This document shows, piece by piece, positions 14,537 to 62,351 of a stretch of DNA of 64,000 bases. The stretch is from contig CAUYUJ010000237.1 of the NCBI GenBank assembly GCA_963575745.1, forward strand, positions 558,001 through 622,000. The letters run 5' to 3'. The notes under the pieces were generated by a model, which worked only from the letters and a program-made list of their open reading frames with translations, searched no databases and had not been told where the DNA came from. This DNA comes from Prorocentrum cordatum (taxonomy: Eukaryota). Positions within the stretch are counted from its first letter, which is position 1. The number at the start of each line of letters is the position of its first letter. A program made the position numbers and the translations under genes.

Positions 14537-14712
14537 CAGTGGAGGCCCATGCCAAGAAGCACTTGGCTTGCCTTCGGGGTGCCCTGGATTTCTTTGGTTT
14601 CAGCGGTTTTGCTATGGAGCGCGTGACGTTCCCACGCCGCATTTCAATGGGCGTCCTGGGGTTCCGGGGTTGGGTTTCTTGTGGAAGGTTTCGTGTGGTC
14701 GGGCCTCCACCG
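14537..14712. mobile_element. Tc1/mariner-type MITE family A (TA TSD)
   Basis: TA-CAGTGGAGGCCC..GGGCCTCCACCG-TA. Related to 17198-17403 and 54419-54520. Confidence 0.8.
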
Positions 14713-15793: not shown

Positions 15794-15970
15794 CAGTCGG
15801 GGCGCTGAAGAAGGAACCGTTTTCGTTGGGGAGGGGCTCGGTGTTCCTTGATTGTTTCACAGTTTGCCTCAGGCTTTCTTTATAGGTTTTTGATGGGAAG
15901 TTGAAGTTTAACTTTGGAGAAAAGGGGCCTCGTTCCTTACTTTGGGTTCCTTAGGGCAACGCCCCGACGG
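15794..15970. mobile_element. Tc1/mariner-type MITE family B (TA TSD)
   Basis: TA-CAGTCGGGGCG..CGCCCCGACGG-TA. Homolog at 60114-60377. Confidence 0.8.
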
Positions 15971-16362
15971 TACGGCAGGTTCGCGCGGCGTTGGCGCGCC
16001 GGCGACGCTGGCGAAGGCGTTCGAGGTGGAATTCTGCGATGCGGGAGCACCGAGGGACAGCGTTTAACGCCATTGGGACCCCACGGAATTCAGCCTTGAA
16101 CGATCGGGGCCGCGATCGACGGTTCAAGGTTGAACGATCGACGCAGTGTCAAAAACCTTTGCGCGCGCCGACGCCGCGCGAACCTACCGTGGACGCAGGG
16201 AAGTGCTTGCAGGACGGGGGGGGCACCGGAGACTTGCGCACGCTCCCTGCCAGACAGCCCCGGACGTCCTAGGCGATTTCGTGGGCTGCTTGCGTCTCGA
16301 CTTCGTTTTGCAGCAAAGGCGGATTGAAGACAAAACGAGGGAAAGCGAGCACAAAGCGAAAA

Positions 16363-19017: not shown

Positions 19018-20459
19018 GCGCCCCGCGCGGGGCGGGCGGGGAGCCGAGGTCTGCGGGCGCAGCGCTCCCCACGCCCGCGCCCCAGGCGGCCCTCAGGAGA
19101 GGAGGTGCGCGGCCTCCGATTTCGTGTGTGTGTGTATATGGCTTTTGCCACTTCCAGTGGTGCTCCCTGCCCAGACTCATGCGCGATTCGCCCTTCTCGT
19201 CCTTCCTGTCTGTTGCGGGGCTTTGGGGGCGGGCCTCTTGGAGGCATCGAGGTGGCCCTCCTGGAGCCTCGACAGGGCTCCCCGGGGTTTGGGGGGTCCT
19301 TCCTCTGATGGGCCTCCTCTGGGAGAGGGCTCCCTGGGGTCTCTGCAGACTCTCCCTCTCGGGCCTCTCTTTGGGCACCCCTCAAGGGCTTTCTCGAAGG
19401 TTTGTCGCGTTCCGTGCTGGGAGCCCATTGGGCCGTCCCAGGGCCCTCTTGGGCCCCTCGGGCCAGTCTTGGGCACTTCCCAGGCCGTCTCGCCCGAAAA
19501 GCCGAGAACAGCCAGGCCACTCGCAGACCTGCAGAAGATCCACGACTTCTGCCTCTCGAGGCCCTCTGAGGATCCTCTTTCAAGCTCCCTTTCGGCTGGG
19601 GGTGCCCTGGGCCGTCTCGAGGCTATCTTGGTGTTCCTGGGGCCTCTCCGGCGTGCTGGAGCCCCTCCGGAGCCATCTCCGGAGTCATTTGGGGAACCTT
19701 GGCGGCCACGGATCCGAGGGCCCCAGAGGCGCGTGGACGAGCTTGTCGGGGGACTCCCTTCCCGCGCCCCCCCCATCAAACAGGATTTTGGACCCCAGGA
19801 GAGGGAGATAAGGGGGGATAGGGGGACAGCTAATCTTCTCACGCGCCTTTCCATCCCTGGCAAGCGGGGGTCGGTGGATAGTCAGCCCTCATGCTGTCGA
19901 ATATCTGTTCCTCTCCCGTCGGGCCGCTTCTTTTGTGTTTCGCAGCGCGGGCCAGACTGCGCAAAGCAGCATTGGCAGGACTGGGGGACGATCATCCTCT
20001 TCGCGTTGCTGTTTCTGCAAGCTGGCGCTTTAAACAAGTGAGAGCTCGAACGATCTACCTCGACGACCTTGCATTAATGTCATTTGAATGTTTGGGTGAC
20101 GATAGGAAGAGCAAGAGGACGATCAGGACGGATGATGGACAAAGGAAGAGGTGGAGGAGGAGGGAGAAGGATAAGAGTGAGAAGAGCAAGGGGATGATGA
20201 TGATGAGGAGGAGGAGGAGGAGAAGGAGGAGGAGAAGGCGAAGTGGCATGGAGGATGGCGTGTAGTGAGGAGTATTGAAGAAGAGCTGGGACGATAAGGA
20301 CGGGTGTGAGCAGTACCAGCAGTGGCAGTTGCAGCAGTGCGTAGGAGGGGTGAGACCTGAGGCGGCGAAGAAACAGGAGCTTCAAGATGATGGAGGAGGA
20401 TGAGAAGGAGGAGGAGGAGGAGAAGGAGGAGAAGGGGAATGAGTGAGAGGAGGTGATGG

Positions 20460-24015
<3,556 letters not shown>

Positions 24016-26070
24016 GTCATGCTGGTAATTTTTGTCGTAGTATTCGCAGTTCTCACCATCACCCTCATCTGCGCCACCGAGTCGCCGTTAGTGTTTTCGC
24101 AAGCGACCGCCATCGCCGCCATCATCGGTCAATCGCATTCACCACTGACACATGTACATCATCATCATCATCATCATCATATCATCATCATCATCATCAT
24201 CGCCATTGGCGTCATCAGCATCGGCGCCGTCATTGGCCTTGTACTCGTCACCGTCATCATGGCCTACACCATCGCTGCTATCATCATCGTTGCCGCCGTT
24301 GTCGACGTCGTCGCGATACTGCGCCCGCCCGAGTCACCGACCATCACTGACGTGCCTGCGCGCCGGCGCGGGCTTGGAGGCGCGCTGGGAAGCTCCAGGC
24401 GGTAAACGCCATCGCAGCTGCGTCGGCTGTGCCAAACCAGCTGGCCGCTGTGCGCGCGAGCTTGCGCGAGCTAGCGCAGCCGCAACAGGCGCCAGCCACT
24501 GCCAAGTAGTCACCGCAATCGCGGCTGCATGGGTTCTGCAAAATAAGTTGCGGGTGGGAGGGCGGTATGTTTGCGCGAGCAGTGGAGTTGACGACTTCAG
24601 CTTATGCAAGGTTGTCTTCTTTTTTTCACACAGGATTTCAACATTTGGTCTCCTGATCGTCTTATAATTCGAGCGACTTTGGGTTTTTCAAAATGGTGGT
24701 GCTGCTGCTGCTGCTGCTGCAGCGTTGGCTTCGTTTGAGGATTGGCGCTTTGCCCCCGTCGTTTCAAACGACGTTCTCGCCCCTGCGCGGGCCGTTCTGT
24801 TCTGGACCCGTGTCTTTCCTCACCGTTGTTGGCCTCCTCGTTTCCACTCCTCCGCCTTCCTATGGTCCTCCTTGTCTGCCCATTCCTTCTACTCCAGCCC
24901 GTGCTGCTGCTGCTATTCGTCCTCGTCCTTCCCCTTCCTCATCATCCTTTTCCTCCTGTTCATCCTCCTGCTCATCCGCAACCTCTTCCTTTGTTTCACA
25001 GCTCTCCTACTTCTATTACGCAGATCATGAACACGTTTTTTGTTTTTTTGGTTTCAGGTCCGCTATGATACGCGCTGTTGGATAGAGAAGAAATCGATGC
25101 GCATTGGGAAGGTGTTAGTGATAGGGATAGGATGTCAAATCTGGCGCAAGGGAACTGGTCATCTTCAAAGCACCGATCGTCCTCTTCCCCACGAGCGTCC
25201 CGTGACTTGTTTGTTTTCGCGCCGCCGGCGCCGAACCTCCCGACCCGGGGGCCCCCAAACCGCCCAACAGCATCCAAAAGCCTCGTTCCTCGATCATTGG
25301 TCATCGATTCGGCGGCTCGCCGGGGGGAGGGGGGCGGAAGTTAGAAGGGGGGGCTCTTCGCAGAAGGCTGCGGGGCTTATCAGAAATCTGTCCTACGGTC
25401 TTGTGGGAAACCCTCTCTCATAATCGTGCATACACTAAGAAGAAATAAAGTATCAACTGTACTATGACTTGCAATACGGGGAATCAAAGGAAGAGCAACG
25501 CTACAACCAATACTAAAACTACCCATAATAATACCAAACGGACTTGCAATGATATGAAGAGTAGTAAATGTCATAATGATACACATTATGGTGAGACTAA
25601 CAAGCATACGAATGCGAATGCCAATGCTAATGCTAATCGAACGAATAGGAGGGACACGCGTAGTACCAATGATAACCATAATGATATCACCAATGCCAAG
25701 AAAGTTCGTAGCATGAATACGGCGAAGCGTGTTCATGATAGTAACAAAGAGAGAGTATGAGTTCCACGAATTCCCCAATCAGGATACCATTCATCACAAG
25801 ACGATCAAGAACGATGAGATGAATGCGACGAATACCACCCATCACGTTGACAGCAGGCATCAACAGTAACCTGCATGCGGAGAAGACACATACGAGGACT
25901 TCTGGTAAGCTTGAGAAGCAGACTGTGCGGGCCTCTGCCCCTCTTCCCGCTGTCCCGACCCGACCGCCCTCGCTCCTCGATCCCGCTCGGCGGCGCGCCG
26001 CCCGCGGCCCCCGCCCGGGCGCCCCCGCCCGGGCGCCCCGCCGTCGCCCTCGGCGCGCCCCCGCCGTCCA

Positions 26071-26117
26071 GGCGAGGTGGACGACGCCGAGCTCCTGCGC
26101 ATCTTCAAGGAGCTGTG
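26071..26117 (+). CDS. Possible isolated exon (GEVDDAELLRIFKEL, weakly EF-hand-like)
   Basis: CCAG|G acceptor and GC3-rich codons. No partner exons identified. Confidence 0.3.
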
Positions 26118-26591
26118 TGGGGGGGGGGGCAGAAAGGGAGGGGGCAGGGGACGATGGAGGAGAGGGATGGAGGCGCAGGCGGCGGAGGAGGAGGAGGAGC
26201 AGGAGGAGGAGGAGCAGGGGGAGGATGGGGAGGATGGGGAGGAGAAGGAGGATGTTAGCGGTGACGACACGGGGGGAACACACACACAGGAAACGAGGAG
26301 GAAATAGAGGCAGCAGTCCGACTAGTCCCCAGGTGAGTCAGACCAAGGCCCGACGTCGACTGTAATACCGTCAAGCTTGGGATGTCTACCCTGCGCTATG
26401 CGATTCCAGGAAGGCCGCCTTCCCTGAGCCCCATTCGGGGAAAGAGGGCGACACTCATGGCAGAGACCTTGCACTTGACCGCCGCTGGTGTGGTTAACGC
26501 AGCGGCGGCATACACAACAATGAAGGAGGAGGAAAACGAGGAGAAGGAGGAGCAGGAGGAAGAGGGAAAAGGAACATAAGGAGGTGCATTA

Positions 26592-26633
26592 GGATGATGA
26601 TGGTGATGATGGTGATAATGCTGAGGATGCTGC

Positions 26634-26665
<32 letters not shown>

Positions 26666-28995
26666 CTGTTGCCGCTGATGATAATGCTGATCATGATGGT
26701 GATGATGATGGTGGTGGTGGTGTTGATGATGCTGATGATGCTGATTTTGATACGGATGATGCTGATGATGATGATGTTGATGATGAGTGTGATGGTGATG
26801 TTGACGATGTTGATGCTGATGATGATGCTGATGCTGATGATTATGACAATGCTGATTGTAATGATGATGGTGATCGTGTTGATGCTACTGATGATGCTGA
26901 TGATGCTGATGATGATGATGATCTTGATGCTGCTGATGACAATGATGATTTGACGATACTTATGGTGTTGCTGAAGATGCTTATGATGCTGATGCTGATG
27001 CTGACGTGCTGATGGTGATAATGATGATTACGATGCTGATGATGCTGATGATGAAGATAGTGCTGACGATTATGATGATGATGATGATGATGAGGATGAT
27101 GATGATGATGATGATGACGATGATGATGATGATGATGCTGGTGATGATGCTGATGGTGATGATGCTGCTGATGCGGCTGATGAGGATGATGATAATGTTG
27201 ATGATGGCGACGATGATGATCATGATGATGCTGCTAATGCCTGTGAGGATGTCGATGATGATACTGACACTGATGATGCTGGTGATGCTGATGCTGATGA
27301 TGCGGTTGATGCTGCTGATGATGACGATGATGATGCCGATGACGATGATGCTGCTGCTGTTGATGTTGACGATTGCGATGACGATGCTGATTGTGGTGCT
27401 GATGCTGGTGATGACGATGCTGATGATAATGACGACGCTGCTGTTGATGATGGTGTTGCTGCTGATGGTGATGATGATGCTGATGATGCGGCTGCTGATG
27501 CTGATACTGATGCTGATGATACTGATGATGATGATGTTGATGCTGCTGCTGATGCTGATTATGATAATGCTGATGCTGCTGATGATATTGATGGCGCTGA
27601 TGACGCTGATGGATATGATAATGCTGCTGACGATGATGATGCTGATGATGACGATACTGATGCTAATGATGCTGATGATGCTACTGATGCTGATGCTGCG
27701 GCTGATGCTGCGGCTGATGATGCTGATGATGATGCTGCTGATGATGATGATTATGACGACGCTGATGAGGATGATGATGCTGATGCTGATGCTGATGCTG
27801 ATGCTGATGCCGATGTTGATGATGATGCGGATTATGCAGTTGATGATGATGACGCTGATGGTACGGAGGATGAGGAGGAGGAAGAGGAGGAGGAGGATGA
27901 GGAGAATGAGGAGGAGGAGGAGGAGGAGGAGGAGGAGGAGGAGGAAGAGGACGAGGAATAATAACAAGAAGACGAACAAGAGGAGGAGGAGAAGGAGGAG
28001 GAAAAGGAGAGAGGAGTAGGAGGAGGAGGAGGAGGAGGAGAGGAGGACGTGGCGGAGGAGGAGGAGGAGGAGGAGAAGGAGGAGGAGGAGGAGGTGGGGT
28101 AGGAGGAGGATGAGGATAATGAGGAGGAGGCATAGGAAAAGGAGGATGAGGAAGGGGAGGAGGAGAAGGAGGAGGAGGAGAAGGAGGAGTAGGAGGAGGA
28201 GAAGGAGGAGGCAGACGAGGACGAGCAGCAGGAGGAGGAGGAAGGAGGAGGAGGAGGAGGAGGAGGAGGAGGAGGAGGAGGAGAGGAGGAGGAGGAGGAG
28301 GAGGAGGAGGAGGAGGAGGAGGAGGAGGGAGCAGCAGGGGGTGGCGGAGGAGGAGGAGGAGGAGGAGGAGGAGGAGGGGGAGGGAGGAGGAGGAGGAGGA
28401 GGAGGAGGAGGAGGAGGAGGAGGAGGTGGAGGAGGAGAAAGAGAAGGGAGTAGGAGAAGGAGGCGGAGGAGGTGGAGGAGGAGTAGGAGGAGGATAATGG
28501 GGAAAACAGGGGGAGGGGAAGGAGGAGGATGCAAAGGAGGAACAGGGAGGAGGAGGAGGAGGAGGAAGGAGGAGGAGGAGGAGGGAGGAGGAGGAGGAGG
28601 GAGGAGGAGGAGGAGGAGGAGGAGGAGGAGGAGGAGGAGGAGGAGGAGGAGGAGGAGGAGGAGGCGGGGGAGGAGAAGGAGGAGGAGGAGCCAGCACCAG
28701 CAGCAGCAGCAGCACTAACAGCAGCCGCCGCCGCGGCCGCCGCCGCAGCAGCAGCAGCAGCAGCAGCGGGGAGGAAGAGGACAATGATGATTGCTTCATT
28801 AAGGGAAATGTTGAAGGTTTGGAGGAGGATGAGGTGGAAGAAGAAGAGGAGGCAGAGGAGGAGGAGGAGGAGGAAGAGAAACATGAGGAGGAAGAGGAGG
28901 AGGAGGAGGAGGAGGAATGGGAAGGAAGAAGAGGAGGACGAGCAGTTGGCGGATGAGGGGGATGGCGGGGATGGGGAGGAGCAGGAGGAGGAGGA
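26592..28995 (+). repeat. Compound (GAT)n then (GAG)n microsatellite with a short (GCA)n
   Basis: Switch from GAT to GAG near 27865. Confidence 0.95.
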
Positions 28996-29349
28996 CAGGG
29001 TTTGGCCCACGTAAAACACATCCGATACTGCATCTTCCCTGTTGCAGTCTCGTCCGAGGCCTGACCCCAAGCGTGGCCCCTAGTTCCGCGTTCAAAGCGA
29101 CAGTTCATCAGTCACAGAGCACGAGGCGAGCCTTGGCATACACGAGCCCGATCTCAGCGACACACCGCACGAGTTCTGACAGCAGCTCATCAGACATACG
29201 TTCGCCCTGCAGAACGGCACAGTTCATTCATCATGGCGGGCGGAGGTCACCCAGGGAAATGGAGGTCAGCAGGAGCGTCAAGAAACGGCACAGCCGATGT
29301 TCGTGTGGACAGCATTCTACGGAACAATCCACCTCCTCCTCAGCAGCGC

Positions 29350-48596: not shown

Positions 48597-49561
48597 TAGT
48601 ATTCGTAGTGTGTGGTTGTTGAGGGGGCAGGGGGAATAGCGGGAGGAGGAGGAGGGAGAAGGAGCTCTTCCTTCCCCTGCCCTGGCCCCCAGTCACCTCC
48701 TGTTTTTTTTGTTGTCCTCCGTGCACCCCTGCCCCCCGCCTCCCCCCTTCTTTTCGAAGGGAGGACCCTGGGGGCACGATGGATGGGAGGCGCTGAGAGA
48801 GAGGGGCCACGGGGAGGGACAGAGAGGCGAGGCGGTGGTGGCGAGCAGAGGGGGTTCACGAGGGGGGCGTGGGCAGGAAGTGGGGAGGGAAGGCGGCAGG
48901 AGGAGGGACCACAGCCAGAGCTCCAGGAACCAAAGCATTTTTTCGTCAAGCTTGAATGGCGCCTGTGAAAAGGAGGAGGGACCACGACATGGATGGGAAG
49001 AGGGACGATAGGAGAAGGAGGAGGGAGGACGGACGAGGCCGATGAGGAGGCAGGCACGAGTGAGCCCAGTAGGCGTCAGCGATCCTGCCACGCACGCCCT
49101 CCCGTCCCAAGTCCCCGCCTCATGATTGCTGGCGGCTGGCCTTTCTTTCACTGCGGGAAGCGTCCATTCGAAGGACGAGCGCCACACAGGCCTCTGCCAT
49201 TCAGGCGAGAGCTACTCGTGGAAAGCGATGCGTCACCCATCCGCCTTGCCGCCAGATGCGCAGAGGAAGGGGGGAGGAGGAGGAGGAGGAGGAGGAGGAG
49301 GAGGAGGAGGAGGAGGAGGAGGAGGAGAAGGAGGAGGAGGTGCGAACGCCTGGAGAAGAAGCAGACCTGGTGTGTGGTCAGACAGCTGGAGGACGTGCTG
49401 AGTGAGAGCGAGCCCCCCTGTGCAAAAGGGAGCCACCTTCCGCCCGTGCCGCTGCTGCCCCGTCCGTGCACCCGGCGCGGGGGGCACGAGCGGCGGAGGG
49501 AGCCTCCAGCGAGGGCCGGCCGTGGAAACGACCTGTGTGCGAACATCGGCGCGAACGAAGT

Positions 49562-49753
49562 TCGGGTCGGGCGAGAGGGGGGGTTGGGAAAGGGGGGGTA
49601 CGAAATCTGCTGCATGTAGCTGGTTTCGACCCCACCGAGGGGCCCGTTCCTCGATACATAGCCGCCTCCGGCGCCGGGAGGCGCCGGGAAAATCAGCTAC
49701 GTGAGCTGATTCTGAACCCCGCCTTTGCTATCCCCCACTTTCGCCCGGCCCGA
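49562..49753. mobile_element. TCGGG..CCCGA MITE with 5-bp TSD GAAGT
   Basis: GAAGT-TCGGGTCGGGCGA..TCGCCCGGCCCGA-GAAGT. Homolog of 16363-16555. Confidence 0.85.
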
Positions 49754-51136
49754 GAAGTGGGTACGGAAAGAGTGGGTACAATGCCCAACATCAGTTCTGG
49801 TTCATTTTGGACAGGACTCGCTGTCGGCGTCGCCGCGGCACGTGCACATCTGAGATAGGGGGCCGCCTGCCCAACAGCGGCCGCTGTTGGTTTGGGACAA
49901 CATTTGTTGTCGGGCATTGTGCCCATTTTTTCCGTATCCATTTAGGGCGTCCAAAGAGCAGCTGGGGGCTGTTGAAACCGTTGTGTGCGGTGCTCAACCG
50001 AGAGGAGCACTACAGCAAGGACGCCCCCTCCATCCGTGCAGCAATTGGCACGCTCAAGCCCCGGGAGCATACGCGTTGTTCCTTTCTAGTTCTTCGAGGG
50101 TTCTTTGATTTCCTTGGGGGCCAAGATCCTTTCATCTCTAATTGTTCTATCCTGGGCCTCTTCCTGGCCACTGGGGGGCCAGGAAAAATTGGAAATGAGC
50201 ACAATTAGAACTGAGCACGGTTCGAAATGAACGACGTGTGCTTTGCAAGGAAACGTCCAGAAGACCATCGTCCAGCCCGGACGAAGCGACAGGCCTGGTG
50301 GCGCGCAGAGGAGGGGGGAACGGGGAGAAGAACGGAGGGGGAAGAAGCCAGGAGCGAGGGCGGAAGAGGAGGAGCAGCAACGGTAGGATATGGAGGGGTG
50401 GGGCAGGATAACAGGGCTAGGATCGGGATAAATCGCTCCAGAGCGTTCCGGAGCGCTCTCAGAGCGCTCCGGAACGCTCTGGAGCGGCCGCGGCGCCCAA
50501 TACATCCTCCAAACCCGCCGAGTCTCAGAGATTTCGAGTTATCCTGATCCGATTTTGTCCCGATCTTCGCGTCGTTTTAGGCAGGACTCAGCAGGACATG
50601 GGAAGAAGGAGGAAGGAGGAAGTGGAAAGGTTGAAAGCAGACCATGGGTGAGTAGCAACGGGGGGGAACTCGAAGAATCAGGGAGGCTGGATACAGCATA
50701 CTGGACAAGAGGGAGGCACGGAGGAGACATGGCAATGAGGAAGAAGAAAGGGAGAACCAGGGGGGAGGATCATAAGGATCCTACAATAACCCACCAACCC
50801 TCGAAATCTGCTCCCTCCTGCCCCTTCCCCTCCTCCACGTCTTCAGCGTAGTGCACACCCCCGGCAACGATGCCCTCTGGCATCTTCTTGCGGATTTCCG
50901 AGCTCCGAGTTCCAAGTTCCCCTCCTCCACCCTCCCCCATACATCCTTCGCTCGTGTCTCCAATCCCATCCCTCCCTGCATGCGTGCTTCCCTGGCTCCC
51001 TCCTTGGGTCCTGGTCGACTTCCTCTTGTAATTTCTCCCGCAGCCATCCAAGGGGATTCAAGCGGCTCGGGTCTGGACGGTGCTGAAGTCCCCAGCATTA
51101 CCAGAAATTGTTGCCTTGCGCGCAAGACTCCAGGCC

Positions 51137-52132
51137 ATGATGGAGATCTCGAAGGTGAGACAGCAGAGAGTCCAACGAGATGCAGCTGCATTGTCTGCTG
51201 CTATTAAAAATTATGGAAAGACGACCCAGTGGGTAATGGCGCTTGCGTCCTTACGACATGCACTGCGTTCAAGCGTTCAGGCCGACGTCGTCGTGTACAA
51301 CGTCGCCATCAGCACATGTGGAAAAGGCAGACAGTGGCAGCAAGCGCTGTCATTACTGAGGGAAGTGTGGAACTTGAAGCTGGAGCCAGACACGATCACC
51401 TGCAACGCTGGAATTAGCGCATGCGAGAAAGGTGGACAATGGCATCAGGCACTGTCGTTGCTAAGGGAGCTGCGGGAGCATGGGGTTTGGCCAGATGCCA
51501 TCAGCTATAACGCAGGAATTAGCGCGTGTGAAAAAGGTGGGCGGTGGCAGCATGCGGTGTCGCTGCTGGTGGAACTGTGCGATGTGAATTTGGAACCAGA
51601 TGTTTTCAGCTACAGTGCTGGAATCAGTGCATGTGAGAAGGGTGGTCGGTGGCAGCAGGCGCTGTCGCTGCTGATGGAGCTATGCGAAGCGAATTTGGAA
51701 CTGGATGTTTTCAGCTTCAGTGCTGGAATCAGCGCATGTGCGAAAGGTGGGCAATGGCAGCAGGCCTTGTCGCTGCTAGGTAGTCTGAGGGGGGCGAAGA
51801 CGGAGCCGAACGCCGTCAGCTATAACGCTGCAATCAGCGCGTGCGAGAAAGCTGGGCAATGGGAGCGGGCACTGTGTCTCCTGGCAGAATTCGACAAAGC
51901 AAGACTAAATCCAGATGTCATCAGCTACAGCTCCGGAATCAGTGCGTGCGAGAAAAGTGGACAGTGGCAACGGGCCCTACTATTGCTTGGGGACTCCTGG
52001 GCATCGCGGCTGCGTCCGAACGCCATCTGCTACAGCGCTGCAGTCAGCGCCTGCGAGAAGGGTGGCGAGTGGCAGCACGCTCTGTCGCTGGTGCGGGAGA
52101 TGGGGGGAGCGAGGGTGGCGCCAGACGTCATC
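51137..52132 (+). CDS. Pentatricopeptide repeat (PPR) protein, block 1 (9 P-type motifs)
   Basis: 35-aa repeats such as PDAISYNAGISACEKGGRWQHAVSLLVELCDVNLE. Similarity stops at PDVI, although the frame stays open to 52345. Confidence 0.9.
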
Positions 52133-52579
52133 ATCGACACCTCTACCGTTCTGGCACGCAGGCGTGCCGGGGCAATGCCTCCCGTCCAGGAGCCCTCCCC
52201 GCCAGGTGCCCCGGCGGCCCAGGCAGGAAGGCCCTCGGCGGCGCGCCTCCGACGGGCTCCGGCGGGCTGGAGGTGCCCCCCCCCCGCCCCCCCCACGGCT
52301 CCGGTGGGCGTCGGCGTGCCTTTGGAACCCGTCTCGGAGCCCTGACGATCGACGGAGAGGCTTCCGGAACTGCCCACGAGGCCCCCACGGCTCGCCACGA
52401 GCGGTCCCAGACGCTCGACGAGGCATCCGAGGTGCCCCAGGAGAGGCCCGAAGAGGCGCCAAGAGAGAGGCTTCAGATGTCACAACTCACTGCCAGTCAA
52501 CTGTTTCCCTAAAAAGCCGTGCCTGTCAGGGAACCAATTTCGCTTTTTACTACCTGGTGAGTGCACCGCTGGATCCAGG

Positions 52580-52720
52580 ATTGCCTCCCGTTGCCTCCCG
52601 TGGCCTCCCATTGCCTCCCGTGGCCTTTCGTTGCCGCCTCGCGTTGCTTCCCGTCGCCTCCCGTGGCCTCTGGTTGCCTACCGTGGCCTCCCGTTGCCTC
52701 TCGTGGTCTCCCATTGTCAT
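52580..52720 (+). repeat. 10-bp minisatellite (T[TG]GCCTCCCG)n
   Basis: Directly visible. Confidence 0.8.
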
Positions 52721-53642
52721 CCCTTTCCCTACCCCTTTATTGGTCTTCCTGCATCAGTTCCTTAGGTCCCTACCCTCATCCCTGTGTCCCTCTCCTTAGA
52801 TCCCTATCGCTAGATCCCAATCCCTATATCCCCATTCCTTTATCCTAAGCCTCATATCCCTGGCCTGATGCTCTTAGCCCTGCCCTTATACCGATCCCCC
52901 CATCCTTGGCCCCCCAATTGTGGCCGACCATCGCGCCCCCCCGTCGTGACCCCCGTATTGTGGACCCCACCTTAACTGTGCTGAAAGCTATTCGGAGGCT
53001 TCTGCCGCAGGGGTGCTGCTTGTCATGTGCTTTCGGCTTCCAGGCCCTCCGGCCCAAGCTGGCCTCAGGAGGGCTCCACACGGCTCGGAATGCCGACGAC
53101 AGCCACGGTAGATTTCCAAGAGGGCCTCGGCGTGTCTGGAGAAGCTCCCAGGACGGCCCGAGGCCGCCACAAGAGGGCCCCAGAGCGTACCACGAAGCCT
53201 CCAGGACGGCCCAAAGATGGCACCACGAAGAGCCCGAAGAGTGTCCGAGAGGCCCCGGAGAGCCCCAACCCAAGGCAGCAGAGGAGAGGTCCGACGAGTT
53301 GGCCCAAAGAGGGCCCCAGCCAGCCCCAGGGGACCCCGACGTGGCCGCAGACGGCTCCACAGGGCATCGAGACGCCCCCAGTACGGTCCAAGAGAGCCTC
53401 GGCACGGCCCCCAACGCCAGAAGCACTCAGCAGCAGACGGCACTGGCAAACAGAGCCGGCAATCAGCAGCACCCCGCGACAGCAAGCTGAAGCGTAACGC
53501 AGGCCAGCAGGCACGCGCTGTCGGGCCACCGGGCTGAGTACCACGCGATCAGGACGGCTCGCCAAACGGCTGGCAAAAAGGCAAGCGATCCCTACACTTC
53601 CGGAACTTACCTTGGACGGTAGTCCACGGGCCGACCCTAGTC

Positions 53643-54377
53643 ACCTACAACGCAGCAGTCAGCGCATGCGGGAAAGGAGGGCGGTGGCAGCAGGCGCTGT
53701 CTTTGCTGAGGGAGTTGTGGAACATGGATCTGGAGGCAGACGTCGTCAGCTACTGTGCAGGGATAAGCGCGTGCGAGAAAGGTGGACAGTGGCAGCAAGC
53801 CTTGTCTCTGCTGCAGGAAATGCGCGAAACAGCGTTAGAGCCGGACAGTATGAGCTATAGTGCTGCAGTCAGTGCTTGCGAGAAACGTGGGGAGTGGAAG
53901 ATGGCACTGACGTTGTTGGGCGACATGCTCAGATCGCAAGCGTTGCCAGAACCTATCATTTACAACGCTGCTATAAGCGCATGTGAGAAAGCAGCGGAGT
54001 GGCAACACGCTATGTCTCTGCTGAGAGAGATGCGTGCGATGAAGTTGGAACCAGACATTATCAGCTATTGCGGTGGAATCAGTGCATTCGAGAAAAAGGG
54101 CCTGTGGCAGCAGGCGTGCTCGTTGCTCAGAGAGACGAAGGAGGTGCAGTTGGAGGTGGATGTCATCGGCTACAGCGCTGCGATTAGCGCGTGCGAGAAA
54201 GGTGAGCAGTGGCAGCAGGCATTGTCGTTGCTCCGGAAGTTGTGCGAAGAACATGTGGAGGCAGACGTCACAAGCTACAATGCCGCGGCCAGCGCTTGCG
54301 AGAAATGTGGGCAGTGGCAGGTGGCGCTGTCGCTGCTCAGAGAGATGGAGAGAGCAACGCTGGAGCCAAATGTCATT
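53643..54377 (+). CDS. PPR block 2 (exactly 7 motifs, 735 nt)
   Basis: TYNAAVSACGKGGRW.. to ..LEPNVI with no stops. Confidence 0.9.
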
Positions 54378-54418
54378 CCATTACTTTTACCAAGTGGTTG
54401 GCCCGCGCAAGGAAGCTA

Positions 54419-54520
54419 CAGTTGAAACCAATGCCAAGAAACACCCTGCTTGCCTCCAAGGTGCCCTGGGTTTCTTGGGTTTCGATGGTTTTGCTGTGGG
54501 AAGCGTGACGTTCCCACCCC
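54419..54520. mobile_element. Partial MITE family A copy
   Basis: TA-CAGTTGAAACCAATGCCAAGAA..GTGACGTTCCCAC matches the 5' part of 14537-14712. Confidence 0.7.
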
Positions 54521-54747
54521 AAAAATCACAAGACAGTTCGCCGCTTGGGCCCAACCTCCAGCCCAAACGGCGAGCATAAATCGGGCGTAGCCCCGCATGC
54601 ATTCGAATGCCCACACTTCGTCCTCGTACTACTCGTATTTCTCCCCGTCCTCCTCCCCATCCTGATACTCGTCGTCGTTCTCCTCCTCGTCCTCCTCCTC
54701 ATCCACCTCGTCTTCCTCGTCTTCCTCCTGCTCGAGCTCGGTTTCCT

Positions 54748-55000
54748 ATCGATTGCGCCATAGGTTGCGCCTTCGGCGGCCGAGAATAAAACCGTCTCCG
54801 ATCGGTTGCTCCATAGGTTGCCCCCTCGGCGGGCGAGAGTAAAACCGTCTCCGATCGGTTGCGCCATAGGTTGCGCCTTCGGCGGCCGAGAATAAAAGCC
54901 GTCTCCCATCGGTTGCGCAATAGGTGGCGCCCTCGGCGGCCGAGAATAAAAGCCGTCTCCTATCGGTTGGCAATAGGTTGCGCCCGTGGCGGCCGAGAAT
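54748..55000 (+). repeat. ~54-bp tandem repeat, about 4.5 copies
   Basis: ATCGGTTGCGCCATAGGTTGCGCCTTCGGCGGCCGAGAATAAAACCGTCTCC units. Confidence 0.9.
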
Positions 55001-55142
55001 ATCACCGTCGCGTAACAGGTGCGACCAGTCTGTTCAGTTCAGTTCAGCTCAGTCCAGCTCAGTCCAGTCAGTTTTCACCTCGCGAGAAGCACATTCGGGC
55101 CCCGCCCGCAAGCAATGGACGTCCTGGGGCCTCAGGGTTGGG

Positions 55143-55683
55143 CTCCTCCCCCCTCCTCGTCCTCCTCCTCCTCCTCATCCTCCTCCTCCCCCTCCTCCTC
55201 CTCCTCCCCCTCCTCCCCCCTCCTCCTCCCCCCTCCTCCTCCTCCTCCTCCTCCTCCTCTCCTCCTCCCCCCTCCCCTCCTCCTCCCCCTCCTCTCCTCC
55301 TCCCTCCCCCCTCCTCCTCCTCCTCCTCCTCCTCCTCCTCCTCCTCCTCCTCCTCCTCCTCCTCCTCGGGTGCAGCCCACTGCTCCGAGAGCCGGGGCGG
55401 GCCTGGAGCCCCCGGGGAGCGCCCGATGGGGCCTCCGGGCTGCTCTCGGCGGCAGGCCCCGGGCGCGCCAAACCGCGGCGCCCCGACCGGGCCCCCGGAG
55501 CCGCGCCCGGCCGAGCCCGGGGCTGTCCCTCCTGGGAGACTCTCCGGGGCTGCCCCCCCTCCCTCCCCATCCTCCTCCTCCTCCTCCTCCTCCTCCTCCT
55601 CCTCCTCCTCCTCCTCCTCCTCCCTCCTCCTCCTCCTCCTCCTCCTCCTCCTCCTCCTCCTCCTCCTCCTCCTCCTCCTCATC

Positions 55684-55749
<66 letters not shown>

Positions 55750-55901
55750 GCATTCATCATCATCATCATCATCAGCATCAGCATCAGCATCAGCATCAGC
55801 ATCAGCATCAGCATCAGCATCATCATCAGCAGTCACCATCATCATCATCACCATCAGCAGCATCATCATCATAATCAGCAACAGCCGCAGCAGCAGCCTT
55901 C

Positions 55902-55933
<32 letters not shown>

Positions 55934-56030
55934 CGTCGTCGTCATCATCATCACCATCACCATCATCATCATCAGCATCAGCATCAGCATCGTCATCAGC
56001 ATTCACCATCATCATCATCACCATCACCAG

Positions 56031-56065
<35 letters not shown>

Positions 56066-56104
56066 CCATCAGCAGCATCATCATCGTCATCATCATCATC
56101 ATCA
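55143..56104 (-). repeat. (CCT)n and (CAT)n microsatellites (GAT then GAG on the minus strand)
   Basis: CCT at 55143-55366 and 55570-55680, CAT at 55681-56104. Confidence 0.95.
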
Positions 56105-56462
56105 GTCTCCCAGGAGCCAGGGCGGCTCCTGGGAGACTCTCCGCTCCGGAGACCCCCGAAACCACGGAAGTTCTCTTGGGCCGCCTCGGGTGCTGGGGGG
56201 CCAGTCTGGGAGTCGCACCCTCGCCCCTCAGGAGCTTCCCTGGTCCCCAGGAGGCAGTGGCAAAGCCATGGCCAAGCATATCTGGTTGTGCTCCTGTTCT
56301 TTCGGTCTCGTCGTAATTCTGGGCTTCTGGAGCCGGCTAAGCATGGCTTGAGCTGGAATTGCGAGGGGAGGGGAGGAGCAGGAGGAGGATAATGGGGAAG
56401 GAAGGAGGGAAACCGATGAAAGAGGCAGGAGGGAATTGGATGGCCATTCGCAGGTTCATCTT

Positions 56463-56552
56463 ATCAGATACACTGCTGGAGTCGACGCGTGCGATAAAAG
56501 CGGGCATATCATGCAGGCGTTATCATTGATCAGCGAGATGCGGGGTATGAAG
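56463..56552 (+). pseudogene. Orphan degenerate single PPR motif
   Basis: IRYTAGVDACDKSGHIMQALSLISEMRGMK, in a different frame from block 3. Confidence 0.6.
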
Positions 56553-56610
56553 GCGCTTGTGCACTTCGGCGCCAGTGCCGGGAATGTCAGTCCACGGGTC
56601 TGCCCTAGTC

Positions 56611-56820
56611 AGCTACAACGCTGGAGTCAGCGCGTGTGAGAAAGGCAGGCAGTGGCAGCAGGCCTTGTTGTTGTTACGAGAGTCGTGGGAGGTTATGCTG
56701 AGAGTCGATGTTGTTGCCTACAGCGCTGGGATCAGCGCGTGTGACAAGGGCGGACAGTGGCAACAGGCGCTGTCGCTGTTGAGGGAGGCCTTGGACTTGA
56801 AGCTGGAGCCGAATGTCATC
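56611..56820 (+). CDS. PPR block 3 (exactly 2 motifs, 210 nt)
   Basis: SYNAGVSACEKGRQW.. to ..LEPNVI. Confidence 0.85.
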
Positions 56821-57230
56821 ACCATGCCTTCACTGCCACACTCTCCAACCAGTGCTTGCACTTTTGGGTTCCCACTCCTCTTCCTTAGGAGGAACTGGAT
56901 CGGTACGCCAGGCTCTCGGCTGGCTTCCGCTTGGTGCCGGCCCCCGTGGGCGCCTCGTGCGCGCCCCGCGCGGGGTTGGTATGCCGGTATGCCGAGGTTT
57001 CGCTTGGTGTCTGCATGGGCCGGTTTCCCACCACCGCTACCATAGGCAGGAGGAGGAGGAGGAAGAGGAGGAGGAGGAGGAGGAGGAACAGGAGGAGGAG
57101 GAGGAGGAGGAGGAAGGAGGAGGTGTAGGAGGAGGAGGAGGAGGGAGGAGGGAGGAGGAGGAGGAGGAGGAGGAGGAGGAGGAGGAGGAGGAGGAGGAGG
57201 AGGAGGAGGAGGAGGAGGAGGACTTGTGAC

Positions 57231-58135
57231 TCCTGCTTAGCTTCCCGGACTCTGAGGAGGATCTGGCGCTGCTCCGCTCCTGCGGCGGCCCCCACGCGTC
57301 AGGCTGGCAGACCGTCTCGCCCGGCGAGCGCGGGCAGCAGCTGAACGACCCTGACTTCCGCTCAACGGCACGCTGCCTGCTGGGCCAAGACGCGGCGCCC
57401 GCCGGGGCCACCTGCCAGAACTGCACACGGCCCGGGGGGCGGGCTGGCCATGCAGCGCTGCGGCGACCCGCTCTGCGCCAAGGCCCACCACGCCTGGCGC
57501 TGCGCGCGCGGAGGCGGGCTGAAGGCGCGCGGCGGCGACTTGGAGACCGCGTGGGAGCGGATCCACGCCGAATGCAGCTTCCGAGTCGCGCGGCAGACCC
57601 CAGTACCGGCCTCGGACCGCTGGCGCTGGCACTGCGCAGGCTGCGAGGCAGGCGGCACGGCGCCCGCGCGCCTGGCGGCGGGGGCGGCCGGCGCCAGTTG
57701 CGGGACTGCGCTGACGGCCGGGCGCGAGGAAGCCATCCTCGACATGGAGCCCCGGCGGGCGGACGCCCCCGCGGGTGTTCGCCGACGGCACCGTGCGCTA
57801 CGGCGTGCCCTGCGACGCCGACGGGCTCCAGGCCGCCGTGGCGCGCGATGGCGCCGTCGCCAGGGGCGCCGAGGTTGACAAGCACGCCCGGTACCCTGCA
57901 GGGCGCGGGCCCTGGCGCATGGTGCCGCTCGCGCTCGAACCGGGCGGCCGCCGCGGCCTGGCCGCCTTGCGCCACCTGCGGCGCCTGGCGCGAGACTGCG
58001 CTTAGCTCCTGGCCGCGGACGACGGCCCGGCGGCCGCGGCGGCAGCCAGCGCTTTGGCGCGCCGCTAGGGCGCTGAGTTTTCGATGGTGCTCCAGGCCGC
58101 CACGGCGCGCCAGCTGCGCACGGCGCTCGGGGCGG
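57231..58135 (+). mobile_element. 3' fragment of a CRE-like non-LTR retrotransposon (zinc knuckle plus restriction-like endonuclease), disrupted
   Basis: LRSCGGPHASGW, LNDPDF, C..CGDPL..AHHAWRC..GG, ILD..ADGTVR, AEVDKHARY, VPLALEPGGRRG and FSMVLQ in typical order, with frameshifts and stops. Confidence 0.75.
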
Positions 58136-58204
58136 AGGGGGAACGCCCGCGCGCCCGGGCCGCCCTGGCCGCCTCGCTGGCTGGGTGATCCGGCGTTGCT
58201 GCAG

Positions 58205-58272
58205 GGTCAGGCCGGCTCCGGTTTCGTCTACTTCGCGTACACCATCGCCGCCATGCTCGTGGAGTTCAGTGG
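58205..58272 (+). CDS. Possible isolated exon with a hydrophobic segment (GQAGSGFVYFAYTIAAMLVEFS)
   Basis: TTGCTGCAG|G acceptor and GC3-rich codons. Partner exons unknown. Confidence 0.3.
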
Positions 58273-58989
58273 GGGCATGCCCTCGGGCGTTCGATAGACC
58301 GCCCTGGGGATTGCAGGAGGAGGGAAAGGAGGAGGAGGAGGAGGAGGAGGAGGAGGAGGAGGAGGAGGAGGAGGAGGAGGAGGAGGAGGAGGAGGGGAGG
58401 GGGTGAAGGAGGAGGAGGAGGAGGAGGAGAGGAGGAGGAGGAGGAGGAGGAGGAGGAGGGGGAGGGGGAGAAGGAGGAGGAGGAGGAGGAGGAGGAGGAG
58501 GAGGAGGAGGAGGAGGAGGAGGAGGAGAAGCAGGACCCTCCCATCTTCCCTTCTCCCCCCGTCCTACCTGTGATGGTGGTGGTCGAACTTTGGCCCATCA
58601 TGTCTGCGGGCACGTCGTGGGCGCCCAGAGTTGGATGGATCTGCCGAGGTTTCGCCTGGCGCCCGCGCCGTGGGGGCGTTCGATGGGCTCCCAGCGGGGG
58701 TGGGGGGCAATGCCGAGGCTTCGACCGGTGACCGCGCCCGGGGGCGCCTCGCGGGCGCCCCGCGCAGGGGCAGTGTGCGGACGCTTCGCCTGGTGCCCGC
58801 CCGGGGGCGCCTCGTGGGAGCCACTGCAGCGGAGGAAAAGATTCCCAATCTCTCTGCCCTTCGCTCGTTTTCCCCTTTTTGGGCCTCCTCGGGGGCCCTC
58901 GTCGCCACCGTTTGAGTCGCCTCGAAATGCTGGTCAGAACGCGCCCCGGGAGAGGTCCAGGGAGTAGCGGTATCAGTACTTTTTGGTTT

Positions 58990-59360
58990 CCCCGCACATA
59001 GCTTACACCGCAGAGCTTACACCCCACAGCTCACGCCAGATGTCCGACACCGCGTAGCTGTCGCCACATGGCACACGCTACCCAGTTCATTCGACCTAGA
59101 TCAGCTCGGACAGCTCTCACACCGCATAGCTTGCACAACACACCGTACACCACATACCTCACACCGCATAGCTCACGCCACATGGCGCACGCCGCATAAC
59201 TGACGCAACACAGCGTATAGCACATCTATTTCGCCACATAGCCTACACAACATAGCTCGCACAACATACCTTACACACATTGAACGTAATCAGTTTGCAC
59301 AGCATTGCTTTCACCCCACAGGTTCCACCGAATAGCTTACTTCGCATAGCTCCCACCGCC
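58990..59360 (+). repeat. Degenerate CACACCGCATAGCT minisatellite
   Basis: Recurrent 14-nt motif. Confidence 0.7.
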
Positions 59361-60113
59361 ACAGTGCAATGATTTATTGTTTGGGGTCCAAGCGGGCTAA
59401 CATGTTTTCAGAAGAGGCGCGTGCGATCACTGGCAAGGTTTGGCGTTGCGCACCCTTCCTGCCCCTGGAGGCTCACGAGGTACTCTACCACAGTCTCCAC
59501 ACCACAACCCTTAGGCCTACACCTACCTTCTTTTTTCCTCCAGGCACCTCGATGCGCCATTCACTGACCACCAGATCGGTGCAGACCGAGGAGCAAGCGC
59601 GGTGCCGAGAAACAAAATAGTCTACGGAAAGAACATGTTTAGTGTCGAAGCGCGCGCGGATCGCGAAAGTGGCAGGTTGATGTTCTTGGATGTGATGCCC
59701 AGCGTGTCTTACAGTAGGCACATCGAGTACAGAAACGGGCTGCCAGCCGAGGCCCCTCTGGAAGTTCCTCCTTCCCCCCTCTGGCCATTGGGACCTCCAG
59801 AAGCCCTGGGGCACCTCATGCTCGGTTCGAGCTTCGACGACAGGAGTGCCAACAAGCGTGCAAGGTTTACGGTCGGAGGAGGAGGAGGAGGAGGAGGAGG
59901 AGGAGGAGGAGGAGGAGGAGGAGGAGGAGGAGGGAGGATGAGGAGGAGGAGGAGGAGGAGGAGTGTCGCCCCGCCGGTCCTGGCCTGGCCACGCCCCGGC
60001 GCGCCGCGCCAAGCGCGCCCCAGGCCTCGAGCGTCAACGTCTTGAGCTCTTCCCAGCGCCTCCCCCCCCGCGCAGCGGCACGACCCGCCCCTCCACTCGC
60101 AGGGCATAGCGTG

Positions 60114-60377
60114 CCGCTGGGGCCCTGAAGAAGGAACCCTTTTCGTTGGGGAGGCGCTCGGTGCTCCGTGATTGTTCGACGGTTTGCCTTCTGCTTTCCC
60201 GAGGTCTTCCATGGGACATCGAAGCTCAACTTATGGGAGAAAGGCTCCGCGTTCCTTAAGTGTTTCGCAGCTTGCCTCAGGTTTCCCTTATGTTTTTGAT
60301 CGGAAATTGAAGTTTCACTTGTGGAAGAAAGGGGCCCCGTTCCTTATCTAGGGTTCCTTAGGTCAGCGCCCCGACTG
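60114..60377. mobile_element. MITE family B copy with internal duplication
   Basis: Shares CTGAAGAAGGAACC.TTTTCGTTGGGGAGG with 15794-15970 and ends CGCCCCGACTG-TA. Confidence 0.75.
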
Positions 60378-60848
60378 TAGCGTGTCGCTGGGGACGCCGC
60401 CGCGACTCGCTGAGCAGCAGTTCCTGACCCTACGACCGTCTGCAGCTGCCGTGCACCACCCCTCAGCGCTGCGCACTCTCTCTCTGGCCTCCGGCACCGA
60501 CCGCGCGGGGGCGCGCCGGACCCCGCGAGCGGCGCCAGGAGCCTGCAACGAAGACGCGACAGTAGTCTTCGCCATGCGAGATTGCGAAGAGACAGCGGGA
60601 GCTTGGAGCGAATGTTCGAGCAGCACGTGCGCGCGCGAGAGGAAGTGCTCGACATCGGCGGCATTCGAGGAGGCGCGCTCGAGAAACATGGGTCTCCAGT
60701 CCCTGCGGGGTTCTAGATCTGGCCGAAACCAGTGCGTTCCGACCAGAGCATCCCCACCGCAAAACGTGATCGACATCGACAGAGATTTCGGCAGGCGCCT
60801 ATGCGCTTAGTCTCCTGGTTGTTTTTACCCATGCGGTTCGCGCTGCTC

Positions 60849-61511
60849 AGTTACAGCGCTGGAATCAGCGCGTGCGAGAGAGGCGGCAAATGGCAGGAGG
60901 CGTTGTCCCTTTTGGGTGAGATGTCGGAAACGGAGGTGGCGCCGAATCTAGTAAGCTATAATGCTGGGATGAGGGCCTGTGCACAAGTCGGGCAGTGGCA
61001 GCGAGCACTGTTGCTGTTCAGAGACATGAAGGCTGTGAATTCGGAGCCGAACATTGGCAGCTACATGTCTGGAATCAGTGCGTGCGGCCAGAAAAGAGGA
61101 GATGGCCAGGCACTGTCGTTGCTAAGCGAGGTGACCGAAGTGGGGTTGGAATTGGACGTTCTTGCATATAATATTGCAATCAGCGCGTGTGAGAAGGGTG
61201 GGCAGTGGCAACACTCGTTAGTGCTGCTTTGTGAGTTGGAGGAAGCGGCGCTGCAGCCAGACACTGTCACTTTCAGTCCAGTCCTTAGCGCTTGTGAGAA
61301 AGGCGGGCAATGGCAACAGTCGTTACTGTTGTTGGGCAGGCTCCTAGAGGCGAAACTCGAACTGGATTCTTTCGGGCACAGTGCTGGAATCAGAGCTTGC
61401 GAGAGAGGTGGACAGCGGCGACCAGCGCTACCCGTCCTGGGGGAGCTGTCGCAGTCGGCGCTGTCGAGAGCCGACGTGCTCGCACGGAGAAGTCATCTGT
61501 CCGAGCGCTGA
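60849..61511 (+). CDS. PPR block 4 (about 6 motifs, last degenerate, then stop)
   Basis: SYSAGISACERGGKW.. with TGA at 61509-61511. Confidence 0.85.
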   Translation, partial: SYSAGISACERGGKWQEALSLLGEMSETEVAPNLVSYNAGMRACAQVGQWQRALLLFRDMKAVNSEPNIGSYMSGISACGQKRGDGQALSLLSEVTEVGLELDVLAYNIAISACEKGGQWQHSLVLLCELEEAALQPDTVTFSPVLSACEKGGQWQQSLLLLGRLLEAKLELDSFGHSAGIRACERGGQRRPALPVLGELSQSALSRADVLARRSHLSER

Positions 61512-62351
61512 GTGCTTCAACGAGTTCGAGTCCGAGATCATGATTGTATTGCACGTGAGCGTACCTGTCATCGTCGGCGCCGTGCTGGATCCGCATGGAG
61601 CGCGACTGCGACGGGCGAGCCGCAGAGGAGGCACAGCACGAGCGTTCACGGTATGTCACGCTGCCCGGTTGGTCTGCCCGCCGGGCACGAGAGGCTGCCA
61701 GAGAGTCCAGCCATAGGTCTCACTCGTTCACGGTCTTGAGGCTTGCCATCGCCATCGCTGCTTGAATGGCATTGTGTTGGCGGAAGGAGGAGCGCGGCCA
61801 CCGTCACAGTGATCGGGATCCCTCAGTTGGCAACGTGTGTCAGCCTTAACGGCGGATGGCCAACACGCATGATCTTGAAAGAGCTTGTGTTGGTTGACCC
61901 CTGCTAGAGTGCCGCTCAAGCTCAAAATATGCCATAGCGGACGAGGAAGAGGAGACTGTCAGACCCTTCCCCTCCCCCCTGGGCTGGCCTTCGAGCTCCA
62001 AGAGAAGCGCAATCGTGAATGGATTTGGTGATGGGGAGGAGGTGGTGGCAGAGGGAGCATGCTGGATCCTGGGGAGGGGGAGGGGAGAGGGAGGAGGCAG
62101 ATGAGGCGGGGCAGGGAAGTGGGGAACGGGGGAGGAGGAGGGGCAGGACGAGATGTGGAGGCTGGATGCGGGAGGCAGGATGAGAAGGAGGAGGGAGAGG
62201 AAGGAGGATTTGGTGGACGAGGACCTGGGTGAACCACATGAGCACCACGGATGCCACCATGCACCCTCCCGTCCCAAGTCCCTTCCTCATCGGTCCTTTA
62301 CAGGCCATCCTTTTCACTACAAGAGGCGTCCCCGAATCAACCAGCACCCTA

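Follow-up and report, generated by a model that had tools for sequence, protein, structure and literature searches.

Introduction

Introns of core dinoflagellates are described as running from GT, GC or GA to AG, often with a G after the AG, and annotation pipelines are hard-wired to these ends (PMC11453091, PMC12584245, PMC10666404); the published pipeline for Prorocentrum cordatum recognised only GT, GC and GA donors (PMC10666404). Boundaries of any kind have so far been reported for the parasitic Amoebophrya (PMC7789003). Here we describe a pentatricopeptide repeat (PPR) gene on the + strand at positions 51032-61511 of a 64,000-nucleotide (nt) stretch of contig CAUYUJ010000237.1 (the window), in which four open frames, each a PPR array in the open reading frame (ORF) listing (blocks 1-4), are separated by three gaps. 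We consider it likely that a single nuclear gene, from a GC-rich and Prorocentrum-like dinoflagellate, has these blocks as its exons and carries non-canonical introns (introns 1-3, junctions J1-J3) that are all locked to one register of the repeat. Assembled, RNA-like contigs show that intron 1 is precisely removed at a site without a G[TCA] donor and that exon 2, too, ends at a non-G site.

In Amoebophrya A25 and A120, more than 60% of introns have other boundaries, some of them with direct repeats of 3-5 nt and inverted repeats of 8-20 nt, and no U1 small nuclear RNA was found (Farhat et al. 2021, PMC7789003; PMC11282704). The PPR introns resemble these in belonging to a dinoflagellate lineage, in boundaries that are neither GT, GC or GA nor fixed, in short direct repeats over the exon-intron edges (3-5 nt in Amoebophrya), in forming repeated intron families and in defeating ordinary mappers and gene predictors (PMC7789003). 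They differ in their core, GC-rich, Prorocentrum-like host and in having been found so far only in PPR genes and at one register; in ends that look like a dead motif plus a conserved 3' box in place of terminal inverted repeats of 8-20 nt; in an AG acceptor kept at five of six genomic 3' ends; and in lengths of up to 4 kilobases (kb), the Amoebophrya analysis having spanned 40-1000 base pairs (bp) (PMC7789003).

Dinoflagellate introns with identically repeated intron boundaries (IRIB) carry an identical repeat of 2-9 bp at both edges, present once in the mRNA (Mendez et al. 2015, PMC5032977). Like the PPR introns they share sequence between their edges, so that the cut is not uniquely placed; unlike them, they always have GG, usually AGG, in the repeat, compatible with G[TCA]..AG/G (PMC5032977; a slash marks the cut), whereas the PPR introns repeat TCA, lack a G at the cut and have a T after the AG. 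TCA is repeated at J1 and, as judged through an environmental relative of the gene (contig L010), at J3, without GG at either edge; at J2 only 1-2 letters are shared. With standard core-dinoflagellate genes the locus has in common a GC-rich genome, a transcript 5' end that adjoins an AG, a possible AG acceptor at intron 1 and long, repeat-filled introns; unlike at standard sites, the donors of J1 and J2 do not begin with G, and a nearby GT is bypassed by 4 nt (PMC11453091, PMC12584245, PMC10666404). Depending on placement, intron 1 starts with TC, CA, AT or TC and intron 2 with AT, TT or TC. An AG is possible at intron 1 in the leftmost placement, five of the six genomic 3' ends read TAG/TCA with T rather than G as the following base, and the 3' edge of intron 3 reads TGC/TCA.

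Nonconventional introns of euglenids likewise have variable borders, short junction repeats and widely varying lengths, but they belong to another lineage, and their CAG/CTG pairing between +4..+6 and -8..-6 is absent here, by eye, at any allowed placement (PMC11282704). The U12-type 5' consensus is /RTATCCTT (PMC5032977), and the 5' ends of the PPR introns, TCATCGAC, TTCCATTA and TCACCATG, do not conform to it. We file these introns as non-canonical dinoflagellate introns outside any one described family, because the Amoebophrya traits are only partly shared and the IRIB GG, euglenid and U12 signatures are absent. In the literature consulted we found no account of introns like these, either for PPR genes or for Prorocentrum.

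Like plant and algal P-class PPR proteins, the product of the gene consists of tandem 35-residue motifs and matches the Pfam families PPR, PPR_2 and PPR_3. Plant PPR genes are mostly intron-poor. The array described here, by contrast, is cut into whole-motif exons.

Results

An earlier note on this DNA had described four same-strand PPR blocks of 9, 7, 2 and about 6 motifs, and these are confirmed by open frames, motif scan, repeat profile and Pfam alike. A regular-expression scan found 22 PPR-like motif starts, all 22 on the + strand, with 21 inside the four blocks and one at 56469 in a different frame. We made a DNA profile of the 24 units, each 105 nt long, and with nhmmer it recovered 9+7+2+6 = 24 units in blocks 1-4, plus one extra, degenerate unit. 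Of the 40 long ORFs of the window that were tested, Pfam PPR families matched four, and these four are the blocks: PF13041, PF01535 and PF13812 exceeded their cut-offs for blocks 1, 2 and 4, and block 3 scored 26.8 bits for PPR_2 (PF13041), below the cut-off of 30. No Pfam family matched any of the 36 other long ORFs of the window, five of which lie inside the gaps, and searches with Rfam at the gathering threshold and with a tRNA scan returned no match and no gene, respectively. The G+C content of the window is about 60%.

The spacing of the blocks follows the repeat. Blocks 2 (53643-54377, 735 nt, 7x105) and 3 (56611-56820, 210 nt, 2x105) are exact multiples of 105 nt, as had been claimed. 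Blocks 1, 2 and 3 end in ..DVI, ..NVI and ..NVI; blocks 2, 3 and 4 resume with TY, SY and SY; and the gaps between them (1510, 2233 and 4028 nt) start with ATCG, CCAT and ACCA and end in ..TC, all of which agrees with the letters first given. All three breaks fall at one point of the 105-base repeat, with the boundary pattern exon ..(A/G)A(T/C)GTCA, intron, TCA(G/C)(C/T)TAC.. exon. Since the introns lie at the same nucleotide of the repeat, their removal joins whole motifs. The observation that the specificity pair at motif positions 5 and 35 is kept within its cassette is correct, though trivial, because the break falls between motifs. The gaps are full of trinucleotide arrays or microsatellites and of dispersed repeats, some of which also occur at 14.5 and 15.8 kb of the window.

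Conventional splice sites do not account for these breaks. Counting frame-keeping, stop-free G[TCA]..AG pairs near each junction, we found none that keeps the register at J1 (0/45) or J3 (0/52) and a single one at J2 (1/55, donor after 54393), which is contradicted by the contigs that stop at 54376, so that the claim of no register-keeping G[TCA] donor holds. Gaps 1 and 2 are each flanked by a GT, in the V codon of ..GTCATC, and an AG, in ..CCCTAG, both 4 nt out of register. Splicing from the decoy GT at 52127 to the AG at 53639-40 would give a product that loses GTCA and shifts frame, and no corresponding joint (52126>53641) is listed among the contig joints. Recursive or two-step canonical splicing was considered and rejected, because some step must still cut after ..GTCA. 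This pair of sites, a degenerate motif in gap 2 and a conserved 3' box, both described below, had been missed by the earlier note.

The evidence that intron 1 is removed comes from contigs of the public runs X7 and X8 (study P4), X1 (P1) and X5 (P2, polyA RNA) aligned to 49000-54640. Words sampled across 51032-54425 are present at a fraction of 0.48-0.49 in four runs of one study, and at less in other runs; the first value is near the exonic share of this region, about 0.54. The joint 52130>53641 is carried by one contig each in X7, X8 and X1, that is, in two studies, with a shorter side of 149 letters and no differing letter, and depth over gap 1 is zero in four of four runs. Three letters (TCA) fit both sides, and the junction that had been predicted as 52132>53643 is found within this ambiguity. 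The possible ends of intron 1 (52131-53640, 1510 nt) are accordingly TC..AG for the leftmost placement, CA..GT, AT..TC and TC..CA, none of them G[TCA]..AG. Exon 1 (51044-52130), as delimited by contigs, Pfam and motif units, comprises a short 5' leader, an ATG at 51137, which is the first in frame, and 9 PPR motifs, and ends in ..GACGTCA. Contigs start at 51046 (X8) and 51051 (X7) and match without a differing letter through to 52130; directly upstream of these starts lies an AG at 51042-43, which we infer to be a spliced-leader acceptor marking a trans-spliced 5' end. Exon 2 (53641-54376, 7 motifs) is covered by the X7, X8 and X1 contigs, again with no differing letter, and the match of the polyA contig from X5 begins at 53641.

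Could the joint be an artefact, produced by template switching of reverse transcriptase or by assembly across similar repeats? It does sit within tandemly repeated sequence, and its edges carry a short direct repeat. The shared sequence, however, is 3 letters, far under the assembly word size, the same joint recurs in three runs of two studies with a depth (12.4, 13.4 and 5) like that of the contigs around it, and gap 1 is without any cover while a third study's contig starts exactly at 53641; we regard an artefact as extremely improbable.

A different objection is that the RNA derives from another, uninterrupted copy of the gene (a paralogue, allele or retrogene), the copy in the window having been invaded by three insertions with TCA as target-site duplication. 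The 3-letter repeats at J1 and J3 would suit such insertions, as would the dispersed repeats that the gaps share with 14.5 and 15.8 kb, and no contig crosses an exon-gap edge. Yet the contigs match the exons with no differing letter over about 1.8 kb, and the gaps are old and diverged, with only their ends alignable and no blastn match of gap to gap, so that a pre-insertion copy should differ in the exons. All 24 motifs are open, the 1-2 letters shared at J2 are unfit for a constant duplication, and a retrogene would itself stem from RNA spliced at the J1 site. We consider an uninterrupted copy very unlikely as the source of the contigs.

At the end of exon 2, all three of the X7, X8 and X1 contigs leave the window sequence at 54376, and therefore exon 2 too ends in register, before AT, TT or TC, the cut falling after 54374-54376. 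Past this point the three contigs have loose ends of 14 to 173 letters, beginning CAG.TAC, which is what one expects of a motif start; an exact 27-mer of the exon-2 end had no match in the metagenome contigs. Gap 2 (54377-56608) is taken as intron 2, its 5' end coming from the contigs and its 3' end being placed, by homology with intron 1, at the AG of the second copy of the 3' box (56607-08). On our reading the partner of exon 2 would be block 3, joined at this AG. That box copy (56590-56608) follows ..AATGTCA, starts with GT and ends with AG. Upstream of it, gap 2 contains the degenerate PPR motif (56467-56555; nhmmer E 9e-10, the regular-expression hit at 56469), whose frame is unlike that of block 3. 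We read it as the dead motif of intron 2, but it could be an extra exon; were exon 2 joined to it instead, the 19-nt box, which runs GT..AG from the end of ..AATGTCA to TCAGCTAC, would need to be removed too.

Exon 3 (56609-56818, boundaries +/-3 nt) holds the two motifs of block 3. An ATG at 56585 is in frame with this block (MSVHGSALVSY..), and six database ORFs begin at the equivalent place (M-D-x-x-HG..); we do not read it as a real N-terminus, and the database starts may be GTG or TTG codons called M by a prokaryotic gene caller. Gap 3 (56819-60846, 4028 nt), taken as intron 3, has TCA at both edges, and its possible ends are TC..GC, CA..CT, AC..TC and CC..CA, with no AG in register. Its junction is drawn from L010, an environmental contig closely related to the 3' part of the gene (85-89% identical) rather than RNA of the locus: nt 1-56 of L010 match 56766-56821 at 89%, nt 54-687 match 60847-61480 at 85.5%, and because the two matches overlap by TCA, L010 carries the predicted junction of blocks 3 and 4, ..NVI/SYS. 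The suggestion that the gaps represent an unusual intron class is supported by contigs of two studies at J1 and by contigs on the 5' side of J2, and at J3 only through this relative. Exon 4 (60847-61511) has 6 PPR motifs and a TGA at 61509-11; against L010 its ratio of nonsynonymous to synonymous substitution (dN/dS) is 0.31 over 210 codons, which indicates purifying selection. In the blastn comparison with the window, a 33-nt stretch containing this TGA (61480-61512, TC..AG) is absent from L010. With the stretch taken out, the frame of the window stays open for about 75 further codons, and the stretch may represent either one more small intron of non-canonical type or a simple indel.

The 3' ends of the introns belong to a family with members in other PPR genes. 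The first copy of the 3' box (53622-53640, found by pattern search and in alignments A1 and A4) ends at the acceptor AG of intron 1. The pattern GTCCACGGG-N4-CCCTAG has two matches in the window against 0.08 expected, and none of 100 shuffles reached two. The 3' end of gap 3 aligns to the box in diverged form, and the 3' ends of introns 1-3 are homologous. Scanning metagenome contigs with block 3 as seed, we collected 15 environmental loci, of which four, with a GC fraction of 0.61-0.66, have TAGTCA[CG]CT[AT]C before a PPR motif, compared with none of the 11 others, whose GC is lower. Three genomic-looking loci (L002, L003 and L015) have the 3' end ..CCAC(G/A)GG-N-CCCTAG/TCA(G/C)CTAC before a PPR motif, and L001 has it in reduced form. 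The break register is common to the related loci. An entire family-type intron, about 1 kb long, lies in L015; in L002 two family-type introns enclose an exon of exactly two motifs; and two-motif exons between like intron ends recur in ORFs P0006 and P0007. Among 231 collected proteins, six open with the translated box ..HGxxLVSY and run for one to three motifs before intron-like sequence; all six are unnamed ORFs of short contigs, and one of them, P0020, implies a family intron of only about 90 nt. Members of the family measure between about 90 nt and 4 kb and have unrelated interiors, and in searches that all started from a PPR block, copies with conserved ends were found only beside PPR motifs. 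By eye, L003 (GTGGAC..GTCCAC) and L015 (GTGGCC..GGCCAC) seem to differ by a compensatory change, but the ungapped alignment did not bear this out and it was set aside. Other PPR arrays have interruptions of about 45-55 nt (L003:1120-1190 and L001:380-445), ending ..CAG/GTAACGATCAATCAG and ..CCACCGGCTAG/TCACC, which may be small or decayed members of the family.

The 5' ends of the introns look like PPR motifs. Alignment A3 matches the opening 60-70 nt of the introns in L015 and L002 to a normal PPR motif start, except for two extra bases after ..GTCATC. The PPR-like 5' parts of intron 1 and of the L015 intron went unreported by nhmmer at E<=10, and their likeness rests on alignment A3 and on reading frames. 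In introns 1 and 2, about 75-85 nt in (52200-52212 and 54455-54468), there is a common CCAGGTGCCCCGG / CAAGGTGCCCTGG, which resembles a canonical (C/A)AG/GT donor and is unused in the contigs seen.

Published gene models carry what looks like the trace of such introns. Use of the decoy GT(-4)..AG/TCAGCTAC would give ..P(N/D)-SATxLGSARAR with the next motif out of frame, and the SATxLGSARAR frameshift signature is present in 10 of 49 hits with the label P. cordatum and missing from all 182 others; for any out-of-frame PPR signature the counts are 26/49 and 6/182. By eye, 22 of the 26 frame switches sit at a motif junction. Together with a published pipeline limited to GT, GC and GA donors, this enrichment provides indirect evidence, not proof, that register-locked introns are common in Prorocentrum PPR genes and mis-modelled, and such introns appear to be misread by standard gene finding.

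As predicted from the sequence, the gene product is a P-class PPR protein of about 24 motifs, with a short N-terminus ahead of the first. Its nearest proteins are dinoflagellate PPRs, the best of them labelled P. cordatum, with best identities of 70% (block 3) and 57% (block 1). Positions 5 and 35 carry N, S or T with D or N in 18 of the 24 motifs. In the plant PPR code, combinations at these positions specify RNA bases, and under that code the 24-motif array would read a specific RNA string. The protein is presumably a sequence-specific binder of organellar RNA.

Discussion

How could introns come to lie at one nucleotide of a protein repeat? We propose that the ancestral intron was a dead PPR motif between two live ones, because the intron starts of L015 and L002 align to a motif, gap 2 keeps a dead motif and the shortest member is about one motif long. 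If the ancestral intron was a dead motif, its removal would restore the register by construction. Introns 1-3 and their relatives in other PPR genes would descend from this one intron by duplication of a motif-plus-intron module and would later have been swollen by microsatellites and dispersed repeats. The spliceosome would remove them by way of the AG of the 3' box GTCCACGGG-N4-CCCTAG, tolerating a non-GU 5' site 4 nt downstream of the decoy GT.

Conserved ends at non-canonical sites might also be those of a mobile element. A mobile introner, resembling a miniature inverted-repeat transposable element, that targets ..GTCA^TCA^GCTAC.., duplicates TCA and is removed through pairing of its inverted ends, a route proposed for the introner elements of Amoebophrya, would be expected to leave non-canonical boundaries with a 3-nt direct repeat and conserved ends in several genes and contigs, and P. 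cordatum introns are reported to be enriched in introner elements (PMC10666404). Within 40 nt of its ends intron 1 does form a 9-bp stem (8 Watson-Crick pairs and one G.U), a length reached by 14 of 500 shuffles. Intron 2, however, has no such stem (362/500 shuffles) and intron 3 one of only 7 bp (59/500). In addition, the conserved ends look like the two ends of a PPR motif and not like terminal inverted repeats, members of 90 nt or so stand beside others of 4 kb, their interiors being unrelated, and no transposase-like ORF was found, the five gap ORFs having no Pfam match. An introner origin is in our view unlikely.

The earlier note had also raised the possibility of modular cassettes, and one may ask whether whole-motif exons are skipped or recombined in frame, as a regulated system, to yield proteins with differing RNA targets. 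The exons do hold whole numbers of motifs, the introns share one phase, and exons of one to two whole motifs recur in the relatives. Over 49000-54640, though, the contigs contain no well-anchored skipping isoform. One joint is well anchored; the other nine of ten in the contig alignment have sides of 20-27 letters and skip lengths that are mostly not multiples of 105. We treated these nine as cross-matches of paralogous PPR contigs and not as skipping isoforms, and the claim of skipping and shuffling has no support here. The same anatomy would be expected from one duplicated intron, and descent of the three introns from one motif-junction intron would explain whole-motif exons more simply. A regulated cassette system seems to us highly improbable.

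Several points weigh against the interpretation that we favour, in which the four blocks are exons joined across register-locked introns. Its evidence consists of assembled contigs, not raw reads; no kind is recorded for runs X7 and X8, and that X1 is RNA is a guess. These contigs do not directly exclude a gap-free DNA copy. J1 is the sole junction seen joined at this locus. Past 54376, a 30-letter consensus of the loose ends, from two contigs with an agreement of 0.82, is absent from the window at <=3 mismatches and matches block 3 and the degenerate motif equally (24/30 each); a paralogue contig is probably mixed into it, and we did not count it as evidence for either partner exon. Intron 3, if spliced as in L010, lacks an in-register AG. 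Conserved pairing of the intron ends was not found in introns 1-3, and the fold of the 3' box is not robust (consensus -2.26 kcal/mol, with a positive covariation term). The protein-signature patterns counted in gene models were composed after examples had been seen. Finally, the protein database yielded no sequence identical to block 3, among near or longer lengths, or to block 1, among near lengths, and no annotated model of the locus was met with.

What would such introns mean beyond this gene? An RNA-supported non-G donor, or a conserved intron family of this kind, would extend tolerance of non-GU donors into core dinoflagellates and would account for the many PPR models of P. cordatum that are short or change frame where motifs meet; the register junction would offer a concrete rule for repairing them. 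The family would also serve as a tractable example of how a dead repeat unit may give rise to an intron, and the conserved 19-nt element beside the 3' splice site has a testable role. We speculate, as a generalization that we hold to be quite unlikely, that Prorocentrum-type core dinoflagellates possess register-locked introns which were born of dead PPR repeats and are recognised not through a GU donor but through conserved ends, namely the exon junction ..GTCA and the 3' box. Given one phase and homologous ends, whole-motif exons could then be skipped in splicing, or gained and lost as introns recombine. Were this true, cells or lineages could use register-locked introns to change which RNA a PPR protein targets.

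Some features around the gene deserve mention in their own right. Upstream of it, the bins 49189-49566, 49945-50133 and 50701-50889 are uncovered by contigs, which has an RNA-like look and proves nothing. Between 50410 and 50580 short contigs of high depth occur in all four runs and leave the window at 50579/50580 into differing sequences; this is probably a dispersed repeat that is transcribed or common to many transcripts. Dispersed repeats are shared by the PPR-gene introns and a region 36-45 kb upstream, the copies at 54417-54520 and 14535-14638 and at 60119-60379 and 15799-15972 being 78-83% identical. Elsewhere in the window, 20000-24000 and 26000-29000 show long, extreme GC skew (0.4-0.7) and low-complexity ORFs.

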